Shown here piece by piece: positions 5,452 to 21,377 of a DNA stretch of 48,006 bases. The DNA is from Candidatus Omnitrophica bacterium CG22_combo_CG10-13_8_21_14_all_43_16 (GTDB taxonomy: Bacteria > Omnitrophota > Gorgyraeia > Gorgyraeales > Gorgyraeaceae), in the NCBI GenBank assembly GCA_002771475.1, contig PCTH01000051.1, positions 1 to 48,006 on the forward strand, read 5' to 3'. The translations under genes and the position numbers were made by a program. Under the pieces are notes generated by a model. It ran no database searches and was not told where the DNA came from. It saw only the letters and a program-made list of their open reading frames with translations. The stretch's first letter is position 1. Every line of letters begins with the position of its first letter.

Positions 5452-5763
5452 GTGCAAGAAAACTACGCCACACCTCTTTACACCATAGGAATTACTGCGA
5501 AGCTTATCAAGGTTTGTCCAGCCACACTGCGGATCTGGGAGACAAAAGGATTGATAAAGCCTGCCCGCCTGGGTAAAAACAGGTTCTATTCAAAATACGA
5601 TATCGACCGTTTGGAAAAGATAAAAGATATGATCCGGAAAAATAGGATAAACATCCAGGGCGTTAAAAAGATACTAAGCACAACTGCTTGCTGGGAAATA
5701 AAAAGCTGCAGGGAAAAGGAAAAGAAGGCCTGCCCTGTATATATAAAGCATAGGCGGTCATGA
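5452..5763 (+). CDS. MerR-family HTH regulator with short Cys-containing C-terminal tail
   Basis: YTIGITAKLIKVCPATLRIWETKGLIKPAR is a MerR-type HTH. The tail is CWEIKSC-x8-CP. The stop lies 1 nt before the nqrA ATG. Confidence 0.8.
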   Translation: MQENYATPLYTIGITAKLIKVCPATLRIWETKGLIKPARLGKNRFYSKYDIDRLEKIKDMIRKNRINIQGVKKILSTTACWEIKSCREKEKKACPVYIKHRRS

Positions 5764-5764
5764 C

Positions 5765-7264
5765 ATGTTAAAACCTGCCAGGACATTCAGGGGCGGATAC
5801 AAGTTCAAAAATTTTAACGGCCAGGCCAGGCCTGTAATTGTGGAAAACCAGATACCGGCCATAGTGATCATACCGCTCAAGCAGGGTTTTGGCACGGAAT
5901 TGAAAAGCCTGGTTAAAAAGGGAGATGCGGTATTTGCCGGCCAGACAATCGCAAGGGACGACAGCGTTGTTTCATCCCCGATACACTCTTCAGTGAACGG
6001 GGTTGTCGAAGAGGTTAAGCGGATAAATTATTTTAAACGCCAGACCACCATGGTTATCATCCGGACAACCAATGCCTCCGGGGAGATCCCCAGATTGGAA
6101 GGATGCTCGCCGGACTGGGCGAGATTAAGTAATGAAAAAATAGAAGAATTGATTTACCTCTCAGGCGTAAGCTCGCTGGACAGAGAAGGCATCCCTACCC
6201 GTTTTAAAAGCTCGATCATTCCGCCGGAAGAAGTAAAACACCTTATTGTGCATGGCGTGGGCTCAGAGCCTTATAATATCTCTCTGGAGCTATTGCTTAA
6301 AGACAAAAATCTCTTAAATTTTTTAGAAGGCGTAAAGATCCTTAAAAGGATCATGCCTAATTCCAAGGTGCATCTGAGCCTGAATGCGCAAAAGAGAAAC
6401 ATAATAGAACAGGTAACGAAGCTAACATCCCAGTTAGAATGGCTCGACACATATCCGCTGGAACCGAAATATCCCCAGGGCTACGATGAAATACTCGTCC
6501 CCACCATACTCAATCAGAATTTTCCATACGGCTATTCAGCAGCAAATATCGGCGTAGTGATCCTGAATATCCAGGCTGTCCTGGGCGTCTATGAAGCGGT
6601 TTGCGAAGGCAAGCCGTTTATAGAAAGGATTATCGCTATCTGCGGCCCCTCGATAAAAGATAATATCCACATAAAGGTGCGTGTAGGAACGTCTTTAAAA
6701 GATATACTTGCCGGGAGGGTTAAAACCGAAACGCCTGTCAGAGTGGTTCTGAACAGCCTCCTGACTGGATTCCAGTTAAACGATATCAGCTTGCCTGTGG
6801 ACAGGACATTTTCTCATATAGTGGCCATACCGGAAAAAAGGGAAAGGGAATTCCTCTCGTTTATGAGGCCTGGTAAAACCAGGGATTCTTACACAAGGGC
6901 TTTTCTGGCAGAAATACTTCCCTGGGTAAAGAGGGCGCCTGATACCAATGAGCACGGAGAGGAGAGGCCTTGCATCTCCTGCGGTTTCTGCGAAGAGGTT
7001 TGCCCTGTTAAAATAATACCCCATCTCCTGGCCAAGCATGTCCAGCGCAGTCTGATAGACGAGACCCTGATGAACTACGGCATATTTAATTGTATCGAGT
7101 GCGGGCTGTGCAGTTATGTGTGCCCTTCAAAAATATCGCTCATGAAAATCATAAAAGACGGCCAGGATAAGCTTACCATGCAGGGATGCGACAGCACCCA
7201 GTGCATACTGCCTTATTTTAACCTCAAGGGCATAGAAGAATACAGAGGCGTTACAAAACTATAA
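5765..7264 (+). CDS. nqrA: NqrA-like subunit of Na+-translocating NADH:quinone oxidoreductase, retaining two RnfC-type 4Fe-4S motifs
   Basis: It has an RnfC/NqrA N-terminal barrel-sandwich region (IPLKQG..GDAVFAGQTIA..PIHSSVNGVV) and an NqrA-like MRPGKTRDSYTRAFL segment. It is the first gene of an A-F ordered operon. It also carries CISCGFCEEVCP and CIECGLCSYVCP. Confidence 0.8.
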   Translation: MLKPARTFRGGYKFKNFNGQARPVIVENQIPAIVIIPLKQGFGTELKSLVKKGDAVFAGQTIARDDSVVSSPIHSSVNGVVEEVKRINYFKRQTTMVIIRTTNASGEIPRLEGCSPDWARLSNEKIEELIYLSGVSSLDREGIPTRFKSSIIPPEEVKHLIVHGVGSEPYNISLELLLKDKNLLNFLEGVKILKRIMPNSKVHLSLNAQKRNIIEQVTKLTSQLEWLDTYPLEPKYPQGYDEILVPTILNQNFPYGYSAANIGVVILNIQAVLGVYEAVCEGKPFIERIIAICGPSIKDNIHIKVRVGTSLKDILAGRVKTETPVRVVLNSLLTGFQLNDISLPVDRTFSHIVAIPEKREREFLSFMRPGKTRDSYTRAFLAEILPWVKRAPDTNEHGEERPCISCGFCEEVCPVKIIPHLLAKHVQRSLIDETLMNYGIFNCIECGLCSYVCPSKISLMKIIKDGQDKLTMQGCDSTQCILPYFNLKGIEEYRGVTKL

Positions 7265-7274
7265 GCGGGGAAAA

Positions 7275-19653: not shown

Positions 19654-19664
19654 GGAGGCAAGGC

Positions 19665-20054
19665 ATGGCAAGGATTTTGATTATTGACGATGACCCTGAT
19701 ATAGTTGAGGCGATGCGCGTAGTTCTGGAAAGCAGGGGCCACAAGATTGTAAGCGCCAAAAGCGGCGCAGAGGGGTTAAAAAAAGTAAAGCTGGAATCCC
19801 CGGACCTTGTGATACTTGACGTTATGATGGAGACCATGGATAAAGGTTTTGAGGTGGCCAGGGAGATTAAAAGCGACAAAGGCAGTAAGGATGTGCCTAT
19901 ACTTATGCTGACTGCTATCAAAGATAAGATAGGCATGGATTTTAAAAAAGAAGCAGGCGACGAGACATGGCTTCCGGTTGACGATTATGTGGAGAAACCC
20001 CTTAAGCCGCAAGAGTTGCTGGAAAAGGTTGAAAAATTGCTCAAAACCATATAA
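19665..20054 (+). CDS. Stand-alone response regulator receiver (CheY-like)
   Basis: ILIIDDDPD..DLVILDVMM..PILMLTA..K: REC-domain acidic pocket, phospho-Asp and conserved Thr/Lys. Confidence 0.85.
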   Translation: MARILIIDDDPDIVEAMRVVLESRGHKIVSAKSGAEGLKKVKLESPDLVILDVMMETMDKGFEVAREIKSDKGSKDVPILMLTAIKDKIGMDFKKEAGDETWLPVDDYVEKPLKPQELLEKVEKLLKTI

Positions 20055-20060
20055 CCCTGC

Positions 20061-21377
20061 ATGAAATATGAAGGCCTTTTAGAGAGAATAAACTGGCTTA
20101 TCAGATTGCGATGGATCGCGCTTACGGGCGTAATCCTCACGGTTTTCGTTGTGCAAAAAGTAGTAAGGCTTTCCCTCCCGTTTTTTCCCCTGTATCTAAT
20201 CCCTATCCTGATAGGTTTGTATAATTCGGCATTTTTTTTATACACAAGGCATATCTGGAAAAAACAGCCTGAGGATATTGAAACCAGGGCAATTGTTTTC
20301 GCCAATCTTCAGATAGGACTGGACCTCCTTAGCCTTACTGCGCTTATACATTTTTCAGGCGGCATAGAAAATCCGTTTATATTCTATTTTATCTTTCATA
20401 TGATTATTGCGAGCATCCTGCTTTCCAGGAGGGCGAGCTTTCTGCAGGCCACGTTCACTGCGTGTCTTTTTGTATCAATGGCGGGCCTGGAATATTTCAA
20501 TATCCTGGGCCATCATTGTCTGAAGGGATTTGTCGTAAACGACCTTTATATGAATAAGGTATATATACTCGGCACATCTTTTGTTTTCATCACCACCTTG
20601 TATCTGGCCGCGTATATGGCGAGTTCTATATCGGTAAAGCTCAGATTAAGGGAAAAAAGCCTGAAAGAGGCCAATCTGCTTCTTGAAGAAAAAGACAGGA
20701 TAAAAAGCGAGTATGTTTTGCGCGTGACGCATGATATAAAAGAGCACATTTCTGCCATACAGAGCTGTATCGATCCTGTGGCCGAGGGCATGCTGGGAGA
20801 ACTTAATCCCGGACAGAAAGACCTGATACGCAGGGCAGGCACCAGGACAAGTAAGCTTATATTTTTCATAAAGGCGCTATTGGAGATAACGCGCATCAAA
20901 TTGAGCAGGGATATAGAGATGAAGGATTTTTCTATTGTTAAAACTGCGGAGAACGCCATTATTCTGGTGGACCCGAGGGCAAAGGCTAAAAGCATATACA
21001 TGAGCCGCCGTATAGATGCCGGGGTGGACATTATAAAAGGCGCACAGGTTTATATTGAGGAAACGATTGCAAATCTTCTGGCAAATTCGGTGAAGTATAC
21101 TCCGAAAGGCGGAAAGGTTGAAATAACCATAGAGGATAAAGACGGCTCCGTGCTGATACGGATTAGCGATAACGGCATCGGGATACCCAAGAAAGAACTC
21201 CCGTATATCTTTAATGAATTCTACCGCGCCAGCAATGCAAAAGAATTAGAGAGAGACGGCACAGGCCTGGGCCTCTCAATGGCCAAGCAGGTTGTCGAAA
21301 GGCATAATGGAAGGATTTGGGTGGATAGCGAGGAAGGCAGGGGAAGTACCTTCAGCATCATGCTCCCTAAAAAATAG
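20061..21377 (+). CDS. Membrane sensor histidine kinase
   Basis: About six N-terminal TM helices, an H-box VTHDIKEHIS, an N-box LLANSVKYTP, and G-boxes DNGIGIP and GTGLGLS. Confidence 0.85.
   Translation: MKYEGLLERINWLIRLRWIALTGVILTVFVVQKVVRLSLPFFPLYLIPILIGLYNSAFFLYTRHIWKKQPEDIETRAIVFANLQIGLDLLSLTALIHFSGGIENPFIFYFIFHMIIASILLSRRASFLQATFTACLFVSMAGLEYFNILGHHCLKGFVVNDLYMNKVYILGTSFVFITTLYLAAYMASSISVKLRLREKSLKEANLLLEEKDRIKSEYVLRVTHDIKEHISAIQSCIDPVAEGMLGELNPGQKDLIRRAGTRTSKLIFFIKALLEITRIKLSRDIEMKDFSIVKTAENAIILVDPRAKAKSIYMSRRIDAGVDIIKGAQVYIEETIANLLANSVKYTPKGGKVEITIEDKDGSVLIRISDNGIGIPKKELPYIFNEFYRASNAKELERDGTGLGLSMAKQVVERHNGRIWVDSEEGRGSTFSIMLPKK

Follow-up and report, generated by a model that had tools for sequence, protein, structure and literature searches.

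A gene block in an Omnitrophota genome joins an Rnf/Nqr-type mosaic pump to a putative porin-containing cassette for flavin-based extracytosolic electron transfer

We analyzed a block of genes at positions 5452 to 21377 of a 48,006-nucleotide stretch of DNA (the window; positions 1 to 48,006 of contig PCTH01000051.1, GenBank assembly GCA_002771475.1) from the uncultured Candidatus Omnitrophica bacterium CG22_combo_CG10-13_8_21_14_all_43_16, a member of the Omnitrophota. The block is the junction of two separately mobile modules and not one indivisible unit. Module 1 (5452-13160) holds the genes of a six-subunit pump, A'BCDE(F), with a MenA-like prenyltransferase and a polyprenyl synthase, and module 2 (14498-19653) is a cassette of EetA, EetB/EcfT, the porin Por2, ApbE, the exported flavoprotein FMNb and the small membrane protein TM152. 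Judged from its sequence, the pump appears to be neither Rnf nor canonical Nqr but a mosaic of the two. We consider it about an even bet that the block provides an NADH-fed, quinone-linked, flavin-based route by which electrons leave the cytoplasm of a diderm cell, and in function the locus would then be an extracytosolic electron-transfer system resembling the flavin-based extracellular electron transfer (FLEET) system of Listeria monocytogenes. The established part of this account consists of gene identities, motifs, the porin fold and synteny. Gene families were assigned with Pfam and NCBIfam profiles (bits are given against the cutoffs of the models), Rnf or Nqr affiliation was judged by comparing scores from hidden Markov models and from PDB matches, and the loci from related genomes that were compared with the window carry L-numbers as labels. 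The pump and quinone genes are as follows.

5765-7264, plus strand: A' subunit, RnfC-like (TIGR01945, 269 bits against a cutoff of 246), with two [4Fe-4S] motifs
7275-8345, plus strand: B' subunit, NqrB/RnfD (PF03116, 342 bits), with the flavinylation motif DAVTTAT
8342-8926, plus strand: C' subunit, NqrC/RnfG, with an FMN_bind domain (PF04205) and the motif DAITGAT
8930-9565, plus strand: D' subunit, NqrD/RnfE (PF02508, 202 bits), with Cys in FCMVLGLC and TNCII
9568-10161, plus strand: E' subunit, NqrE/RnfA (PF02508, 169 bits), with Cys in GMCPF and VNCIV
10158-11231, plus strand: F' subunit, an NqrF-type NADH dehydrogenase module (Fer2, FAD_binding_6 and NAD_binding_1)
11218-12141, plus strand: MenA/DmkA-like 1,4-dihydroxy-2-naphthoate (DHNA) prenyltransferase of the UbiA family (PF01040; TIGR00751 menA, 117.5 bits against a cutoff of 102)
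12159-13160, plus strand: long-chain polyprenyl diphosphate synthase, DmkB-like (PF00348, 224 bits)

The earlier note on this DNA, made by a model from the letters and their open reading frames (ORFs), had called the pump genes nqrA to nqrF. Six subunits of the Rnf/Nqr type, including NqrF, are indeed encoded, but the supposed NqrA is RnfC-like. Only F', in which an N-terminal transmembrane helix precedes the 2Fe-2S, flavin adenine dinucleotide (FAD) and NAD domains, passed its Nqr equivalog model, and it did so marginally (TIGR01941, 303 bits against 295). A' fell below both NqrA models (193 and 151 bits against 450 and 321), and the remaining subunits also fell short of theirs (B', 296 against 414; C', 72 against 144; D', 226 against 235; E', 190 against 248), with C' under the rnfG cutoff as well. 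As a control, all six subunits of the Nqr of another Omnitrophota locus (L021) scored above the Nqr equivalog cutoffs. Among PDB structures, the best matches of A' were RnfC of Clostridium tetanomorphum (184 bits) and of Acetobacterium woodii, while Vibrio NqrA gave 66 bits. B' scored 192 bits with RnfD and 184 with NqrB. D' and E' leaned the other way (NqrD 176 and RnfE 156 bits; NqrE 176 and RnfA 157 bits), and the best match of F' was NqrF (221 bits).

The A' subunit departs from both parental forms. Its two CxxCxxCxxxCP ferredoxin motifs are intact, and their eight 4Fe-4S cysteines are invariant in all 115 members of the A' family (59-92% identity, almost all from Omnitrophota); from these motifs, two [4Fe-4S] clusters are predicted. 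At the flavin mononucleotide (FMN)/NAD site, A' reads SLDREGIPT where RnfC has GMGGATFPT, so that the glycine-rich GGA[TG]FP element is replaced and the site is in all likelihood lost. A' also reads HGVGSEPY where RnfC has NAAECEPY. The replacement segment LDREGIPT is conserved in 115 of the 115 family members, and the loss of the FMN/NAD motif is therefore better read as a selected state than as decay. A' also carries an insertion of about 37 residues (approximately 359-395) that is absent from three RnfC structures and aligns without gaps to an NqrA segment (PGK...TRxFL). Two further cysteines near the C terminus, at residues 475 and 480 (CDSTQC, window 7185-7204), are conserved in 109 and 114 of the 115 members, respectively, and lie outside both ferredoxin motifs. 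No RnfB-like gene was present in the block, where NqrF takes its position, and no RnfB-like polyferredoxin was found among the larger flanking ORFs that were scanned, in which the sole polyferredoxin was a NapH-like membrane protein. The label of mosaic thus follows from an RnfC-like A', the presence of NqrF and the absence of RnfB. Since B' and C' have flavinylation motifs and D' and E' keep the conserved cysteines, the electron path common to Rnf and Nqr is plausible for this pump.

The nature of the NADH-input subunit varied among relatives. It is NqrF in the window and in L001, L007, L008, L052 and L054, but a small Fer2 protein with NuoE/NuoF-like subunits replaces NqrF in L004 (1-7299) and L011 (1-7512), and L053 (10001-21500) has NqrF and a NuoEF-like set together, plus DRTGG, CBS, PHP and HATPase genes. 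The A' proteins of L004, L011 and L053 were 53-65% identical to that of the window. Reyes-Prieto et al. (2014) derived Nqr from Rnf through loss of RnfB, decay of the cofactor sites of RnfC and recruitment of NqrF. A 2025 review describes NqrA as lacking cofactors and mentions no hybrid, and NqrBCDEF clusters without NqrA are known in Thermotogae and Clostridium ultunense. Our search of the Rnf and Nqr literature turned up no complex that combines NqrF with an A subunit still bearing iron-sulfur clusters.

The two quinone genes follow the pump closely, the start of the menA-like gene overlapping the end of nqrF by 14 bp. Both were found 3' of the A'BCDE core in 7 of the 7 relatives in which downstream DNA was in view (L001, L004, L007, L008, L011 from Poribacteria, L052 and L054), the polyprenyl synthase always being paired with a UbiA gene. 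L005 and L011 add a gene for a UbiE-type methyltransferase, which fits menaquinone chemistry. In L052, a PqqD-like protein and a radical SAM enzyme (15700-16929) are inserted between nqrF and the UbiA gene.

Por1, which lies between the modules, and the genes of module 2 are the following.

13157-14479, plus strand: Por1, an outer-membrane porin paralogue with signal peptide and N-terminal coiled coil (440 amino acids, no Pfam match)
14498-14914, plus strand: EetA homologue, a membrane-anchored NusG_II domain (PF07009, 81 bits)
14916-16136, plus strand: EetB-FmnA fusion of an energy-coupling factor (ECF) S-component (Gx transporter) and a T-component (PF07456, 133 bits; CbiQ, 70 bits), a putative FAD exporter
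16157-17443, plus strand: Por2, the cassette porin, modeled by AlphaFold2 and compared with Foldseek as a coiled-coil stalk with a 16-strand beta-barrel (437 amino acids, no Pfam match)
17563-18579, plus strand: ApbE/FmnB flavin transferase with an N-terminal hydrophobic membrane anchor (PF02424, 257 bits)
18584-19174, plus strand: FMNb, an exported single-domain RnfG-like FMN_bind protein (PF04205; 196 amino acids), a predicted ApbE substrate
19195-19653, plus strand: TM152, a four-helix membrane protein of a rare family (152 amino acids; PF27139, Aq_1264_TM, is annotated in the L003 homologue)

Most of these genes had been recognized in the earlier note, and the profile matches bore out its ApbE, its flavin transporter module of a NusG-II protein and a Gx/EcfT fusion, its MenA-like prenyltransferase and polyprenyl synthase and its exported FMN-binding protein with an SGAT motif. 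The names EetA and EetB-FmnA follow the Pfam definitions of the Listeria group: in Data Set S1 of Rivera-Lugo et al. (2023; PMC9973259), PF07009 NusG_II proteins are labeled EetA, and in Listeria EetB (PF07456) is the S-component and FmnA the T-component of an ECF-type FAD exporter. The same paper had already reported EetB-ECF-T fusions and counted 3,328 genomes where eetB and eetA colocalize and 2,169 where eetB and apbE do. The Gx half of the fusion is a Hpre_diP_synt_I domain, and we found 361 homologues of the fusion; of the retrieved loci that include DNA upstream of the fusion gene, nearly all have eetA there.

For the mapping of module 2, 24 fusion proteins were aligned and one genome per species was taken, which gave 45 loci, and 21 window proteins were run against all of them with tblastn. 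The ordered series EetA, EetB/EcfT, Por2, ApbE, FMNb was found in 28 of the 37 loci not cut by contig ends, in Omnitrophota, Desulfobacterota (mostly Desulfobacteraceae), Elusimicrobiota and Planctomycetota. The full order of the window was present in two Omnitrophota genomes, without Por1 in L007 and with Por1 in L008. With the whole block in these two and submodules across phyla, the arrangement is not due to chance; gene order was conserved well beyond nqr and apbE, contrary to the outcome that the earlier note had named as refuting its reading. L007 shared 88-95% identity with the window in the pump genes but 58-60% in the UbiA and polyprenyl synthase genes, and the Por2 of L008 was 58% identical while its neighboring genes were 83-92% identical. 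This mosaic of identities suggests, from the sequences, recombination at the junction between the modules.

Module 2 has a different setting in the Desulfobacterota. At least 15 loci from this phylum have an octahaem cytochrome, a three-CXXCH protein and a Ni_hydr_CYTB cytochrome b upstream of the cassette and a protein of approximately 780 amino acids with 10-11 haems downstream of it. In L051, the sole Pfam-annotated example, the 10-11-haem protein strongly matched the OmcA-like_N and MtrC-MtrF domains, and its N terminus has a lipobox (FVGC) followed by a Gly/Ser linker. The loci of this kind are L014-L016, L019, L022, L024-L028, L031, L034, L037, L040, L048 and L051, and we found no description of the arrangement in the literature that was searched. 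In the Omnitrophota locus L004, a seven-haem cytochrome and a 663-amino-acid protein with no assigned function stand in place of Por2 and FMNb.

The separability of the modules bears on a simpler explanation, which we regard as unlikely but as the most serious competitor: the locus may be a plain NADH:quinone oxidoreductase operon with maturation factors and no dedicated export, in which EetA, EetB/T and ApbE flavinylate B' and C' only, the quinone genes supply the general pool, the porins take up nutrients, and FMNb serves a periplasmic reductase encoded elsewhere. EetA, EetB/T and ApbE do stand directly upstream of a canonical nqrABCDEF without porin or FMNb in L021, and in the same order next to an Rnf/Nqr operon in L036, which has the same low-identity profile; in other genomes they adjoin other genes. 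This explanation also gains from the colocalization of eetB with Rnf in 572 Clostridia genomes (PMC9973259), from Por1-type porins beside unrelated redox enzymes (L001 and L003) and from a NapH-like polyferredoxin, DUF362 protein and TatC 8-11 kb downstream that could be the true consumers of quinol. However, Por2 and FMNb are retained with eetB/T and apbE in the 28 loci, most of which (Desulfobacterota) have no Rnf or Nqr nearby and are flanked by the multihaem clusters with the OmcA/MtrC-like protein, and FMNb is itself a predicted flavinylation substrate, with 34-90% identity across phyla. These points argue for the export route over simple maturation of the pump.

Both porins have a signal peptide, a coiled coil and a C-terminal Phe, and the earlier note was right to call them paralogues (BLASTP, 23% identity, E 2e-4; hhalign of Por1 against the Por2 family, 96.3% probability). 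The Por2 ORF has a possible alternative start at 16130. An AlphaFold2 model of Por2 made from 62 sequences (pLDDT 84, pTM 0.75) shows a signal helix, a helix of about 60 residues and a 16-strand barrel, and its Foldseek matches, with E values of 1e-11 to 1e-8, were the classical trimeric porins PorB, OmpU, OprP/OprO, DcaP and OmpM1. Among these, DcaP and OmpM1 also have N-terminal stalks. The model thus identifies Por2 as a probable 16-strand diffusion porin with a coiled-coil stalk; homologues of Por2 carry PF07396 (Porin_O_P), some of them annotated as porins, and its position between eetB/T and apbE is kept in the 28 loci. We considered Por2 as an MtrB-like sheath enclosing FMNb and rejected this on the strand number and the likeness to PorB, OmpU and OprP. 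Since a 16-strand porin passes small solutes, the route to the exterior would run through diffusible acceptors or shuttles and not through a protein wire or direct contact; of the earlier proposal that the porins reach the exterior, the porin fold stands, but only for small solutes and shuttles. Homologues of Por1 that are 61-76% identical adjoin other redox genes in L001, L003 and L038, and the one in L003 matches Porin_4.

The likeness to OprP and OprO also invites the reading that module 2 is a cassette for flavin scavenging and flavinylation, in which Por2 is an anion channel of the OprO/OprP type that admits FMN and FAD, EetB/T imports them, FMNb holds flavin, and the genes adjoin the pump because the pump needs four flavins. 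We consider this improbable. The Porin_O_P matches of the Por2 homologues would suit it, as would the reduced genomes and host-dependent traits of Omnitrophota; moreover, import is the classical function of ECF transporters, and in Listeria uptake can be supported by FmnA (PMC9973259). On the other hand, EetB-FmnA exports FAD in Listeria, where eetB does not substitute for RibU in uptake (PMC9973259), and the FMNb motif is one for covalent attachment, not a reversible binding site. The same cassette occurs among cytochromes in large-genome Desulfobacterota, and Rfam and tRNA scans revealed no FMN riboswitch or other RNA element.

FMNb has the flavinylation motif ...GVSGATISS. In 29 homologues, GAT was invariant within a near-invariant SGAT(I/V)SS, EPGKWGP and EKRGxPIA were conserved, and a Sec-type signal with an AxA site was found without a conserved lipobox Cys. 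By these features FMNb is predicted to be an exported one-domain flavinylation substrate that is related to RnfG but is not part of the pump. The lipoprotein check suggested in the earlier note came out against a PplA-like lipoprotein, which the single FMN_bind domain, the AxA signal and the lack of a conserved lipobox rule out. An exported flavoprotein of this kind might also act as a periplasmic assimilatory ferric reductase that reduces Fe(III) chelates entering through the porins for iron uptake, and many ApbE-associated systems have been tied to iron assimilation by gene context (PMC8238504). However, none of the iron transporters of the VIT1, FTR1, P19 and Feo types was found in the block or the scanned flanks, and the coupling to an ion pump, quinone genes and a quinone-sensing kinase points to energy metabolism, which makes iron uptake very improbable, slightly more so than flavin scavenging. 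In L042 (8071-9579, Elusimicrobiota) and L005 (7981-9489, Omnitrophota), a 502-amino-acid protein with NmrA/NAD(P)-binding and DUF2867 domains is encoded directly upstream of eetA, and it may offer the cassette another entry point for NAD(P)H electrons.

TM152 had no match in the copies of Pfam and NCBIfam that were scanned, and its family is rare, with 75 clusters matched among 1.84 billion representatives. It occurs in the cassettes of Omnitrophota, Elusimicrobiota and Planctomycetota, the phyla other than Desulfobacterota. The AlphaFold2 model is a four-helix bundle (pLDDT 94.8), in keeping with the polytopic protein described in the earlier note, and it matched no fold in PDB. The suggestion in that note that TM152 might be EetA or EetB did not hold, because those are the PF07009 and PF07456 proteins and TM152 belongs to a separate rare family of the PF27139 type. 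A b-type cytochrome (DUF4405, MsrQ or PepSY) is likewise unsupported, given no invariant His and no PDB fold match. In some distant relatives (P0359, P0361 and P0363), the first periplasmic loop contains an insert of approximately 70-80 residues that includes a CXXCH haem-c motif, a hint of a redox context. At 29373-32557, 8-11 kb downstream of the block, the window encodes TatC, a DUF362 protein and a 468-amino-acid membrane polyferredoxin with Fer4_5 (PF12801, 'NapH-like'); these proteins may be the missing quinol oxidase or else constitute a further extracytosolic electron-transfer system linked to quinol. The tatA and tatC genes of L003 come immediately after the kinase gene.

Three regulatory genes frame the two modules, and the last two bear out the two-component system of the earlier note.

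5452-5763, plus strand: MerR/HspR-like regulator with a Cys-rich C-terminal tail, CWEIKSCREKEKKACP (PF13411, 60 bits)
19665-20054, plus strand: stand-alone response regulator with only a receiver domain (PF00072, 81 bits)
20061-21377, plus strand: RegB/PrrB-like histidine kinase with six transmembrane helices (6TM_PilS and HATPase_c), with GGIENPF at residues 100-106

The kinase aligned to the RegB/PrrB/ActS model NF033792 over residues 9-433 (profile 9-415 of 423) with 97.7 bits against a cutoff of 350, and its GGxxNPF motif was conserved in five homologues. RegB uses GGXXNPF to bind ubiquinone and thereby to sense the quinone pool (PMC3000548). The response regulator and kinase accompany the cassette in L003 and L046 and both modules in L004 and L007; L054 has the response regulator with the pump and a split 6TM_PilS/HATPase kinase, and L009 has the response regulator on a contig that ends before any kinase. 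A 70% identical homologue of the MerR-like regulator occupies the same position in L001 and L002, and a Rex regulator replaces it in L052 and L053. The tail of the MerR-like regulator (window 5686-5740) has the pattern C-x6-C-x8-C, which might be a redox- or metal-sensing site.

The 18 ORFs of the block, about 16 kb in all, are on the plus strand at the expected coordinates, with intergenic spacings, from 5' to 3', of 1, 10, -4, 3, 2, -4, -14, 17, -4, 18, 1, 20, 119, 4, 20, 11 and 6 bp. The single wide gap (119 bp) is 5' of apbE, and the remaining gaps range from -14 to +20 bp; the earlier description of 18 co-oriented, tightly spaced genes, six of them between nqrF and apbE, was thus accurate. 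Because scans of the locus for consensus promoters and terminators did no better than on shuffled sequence, the reading of 5452-21377 as a single operon-like unit, which we regard as the proper one, is based on the spacing and the kept gene order. No CXXCH motif was found in any ORF of at least 60 amino acids in the 48-kb window, so the extracytosolic carriers encoded here would be flavins and not c-type haems. The Gx-EcfT protein was 100% identical to one of "Candidatus Omnitrophica bacterium CG_4_9_14_0_2_um_filter", and near-identical DNA was found in groundwater and aquifer metagenomes (DNA runs only).

Taken together, the parts would fit a route of the following kind. F' would oxidize NADH with coupled ion translocation, and electrons would pass from an iron-sulfur center of D'/E' to periplasmic FMN on C' and then to FMN and riboflavin in B', leaving through the RnfC-derived A' with its two predicted [4Fe-4S] clusters to (demethyl)menaquinone. 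The linked quinone genes and the quinone-sensing kinase are what suggest Na+-coupled quinone reduction by the pump, and the prenylation of the acceptor quinone would be carried out by the MenA-like and polyprenyl synthase proteins, whose genes are probably translationally coupled to nqrF. FAD would reach the periplasm by way of EetA and EetB-EcfT, and ApbE would draw on it there to link FMN covalently to its targets B', C' and FMNb. The outlet for electrons in the periplasm would be FMNb. It would receive them from the quinol pool, perhaps with TM152 in between, or alternatively straight from the periplasmic FMN of C', and would pass them to small soluble acceptors or shuttles; these would cross the outer membrane by Por2 and also by its paralogue Por1. 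Expression would be adjusted by the RegB-like kinase and the receiver according to how reduced the quinone pool is. Within this scheme, the direction of flavin transport, the quinone as acceptor of the pump, the link from quinol to FMNb and the nature of the final acceptor are the steps that we infer.

Several observations weigh against this route. If quinone binds in B', as in Vibrio Nqr, the iron-sulfur clusters of A' have no evident role, and L021 and L036 indicate that maturation of the flavinylated subunits of the pump also explains EetA, EetB/T and ApbE. DHNA-synthesis (men/mqn) genes and ECF ATPase genes were not found in the 48-kb window, which leaves the source of the naphthoquinone head group and the energizing subunits of the transporter unaccounted for. 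The locus has no recognizable quinol oxidase, since TM152 lacks an invariant His, a cofactor motif and a known fold. According to its model, Por2 is an ordinary 16-strand diffusion porin that need not be dedicated to electron transfer, and both modules are found apart in many genomes. No RNA runs holding the locus were found, the only matches being the groundwater and aquifer DNA runs.

Two linked claims go beyond the single locus, and we hold them jointly with rather less confidence than the route itself, at a level that falls short of an even chance. One is that A'BCDE(F) may be a stem-lineage form between Rnf and Nqr, present in Omnitrophota, Poribacteria and some Elusimicrobiota, in which NqrF was recruited, the FMN/NAD site was lost and the NqrA insertion was gained while the RnfC iron-sulfur clusters were retained and in use. 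The other is that the five-gene cassette may be a widespread, undescribed diderm export module that plugs into a quinone-reducing pump in Omnitrophota or into multihaem cytochrome chains in Desulfobacterota. If true, the pump would be an intermediate of the kind implied by the scenario of Reyes-Prieto et al. (2014), one not reported so far, and it bears on the origin of Na+-NQR from Rnf and on the former role of the "cofactor-less" NqrA. Studies of monoderm Firmicutes have established how flavin-based extracellular electron transfer works, and so far only gene-presence lists have dealt with its form behind an outer membrane; the locus gives a concrete, testable architecture of pump, quinone genes, predicted FAD exporter, ApbE, periplasmic flavoprotein and porin. 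The core cassette occurs in at least four diderm phyla, including relatives of sulfate reducers in which it lies among OmcA/MtrC-like and other multihaem cytochromes. For the Omnitrophota, usually seen as fermenters, acetogens or parasites, the locus would add a respiratory-type outlet for NADH; a phylum-wide survey of this group mentions Nqr zero times.

Two further features of the window lie outside the block. The GC content falls to 0.36 at 36001-38000, against 0.42-0.48 elsewhere, over a 317-amino-acid ORF without a Pfam match (36078-37031) and the start of a gene with radical-SAM and DUF6873 domains. At 38581-43020, genes for an ornithine/diaminopimelate-type decarboxylase and two saccharopine-dehydrogenase-like paralogues, on opposite strands, look like a cluster for polyamine (carboxyspermidine-type) synthesis.

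Compared with known systems, the pump resembles the Na+-NQR of Vibrio cholerae in its six genes in A-F order with apbE in the same operon, in the NqrF domain set with its transmembrane helix, in the flavinylation motifs of B and C and the conserved cysteines of D and E, and in the best PDB matches of D', E' and F', which were to Vibrio Nqr. It differs in that A' keeps two [4Fe-4S] motifs and scores as RnfC whereas NqrA is cofactor-free, A' to E' are under the Nqr equivalog cutoffs, B' and C' have the lengths of RnfD and RnfG, F' is about 50 residues shorter, and six genes separate nqrF from apbE. With the RnfCDGEAB complexes of C. tetanomorphum and A. woodii it shares the C-D-G-E-A order, the best PDB matches of A' and B' (RnfC and RnfD) and both intact ferredoxin motifs, but NqrF stands at the position of RnfB, the proposed FMN/NAD site has another conserved sequence instead of GGA[TG]FP, and the NqrA-type insertion of about 37 residues is present. 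The kinase has the GGXXNPF motif (GGIENPF) of the RegB/PrrB/ActS kinases in a sensor domain with six transmembrane helices.

In its model, Por2 is similar to the classical trimeric porins of the OprO/OprP, PorB, DcaP and OmpM type, with a 16-strand barrel and a C-terminal aromatic residue. The Desulfobacterota cassettes recall the porin-cytochrome conduits (MtrCAB, Geobacter Pcc/Ext and OetABI) in having a porin beside an OmcA/MtrC-like decahaem lipoprotein and periplasmic multihaem cytochromes; however, the 16-strand Por2 is not a large sheath that encloses a cytochrome, and the window has no CXXCH.

The closest parallel is the FLEET system of Listeria, of which the locus has 6 of 8 homologues (EetA, EetB, FmnA as ECF-T, FmnB as ApbE, DmkA and DmkB), along with an exported FMN_bind flavinylation substrate and a single co-oriented cluster that includes a membrane NADH dehydrogenase. 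The block has no Ndh of the Pyr_redox_2 type, and thus no type II Ndh2 with a C-terminal membrane domain; a six-subunit ion pump of the Rnf/Nqr type takes the place of the single-subunit Ndh2. Further, eetB and fmnA are fused, and PplA is a surface lipoprotein with two FMN_bind domains, unlike FMNb with its one domain, Sec signal and no lipobox. The stalked porins, TM152 and the RegB-like two-component pair are additions in a diderm host. Because the Ndh2 and PplA-type lipoprotein features are lacking, the locus is better described as a FLEET variant than as a member, and the parallel drawn in the earlier note is upheld in part: its observations were confirmed, while the single indivisible unit and the canonical Nqr labels were not.

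The general idea of FLEET-type genes in a Gram-negative phylum is not new, having been inferred in 2024 from gene presence in the Effluviviacota (PMC11323493, in the parts available to us). That work is likewise genomic, with DmkAB, EetAB and FmnAB-type genes in a non-Firmicute and Nuo, Rnf or Nqr as possible inputs, but those parts of it report gene presence and absence and describe no single locus, porin, periplasmic FMNb or mosaic pump. Similarly, the flavinylation surveys consulted (including PMC8238504) define NQR by NqrF alone, and searches of them did not turn up the porin-containing cassette. Overall, relative to the literature surveyed, the new elements are the porin-containing cassette, its multihaem embedding in Desulfobacterota and a pump with an iron-sulfur-bearing A'.

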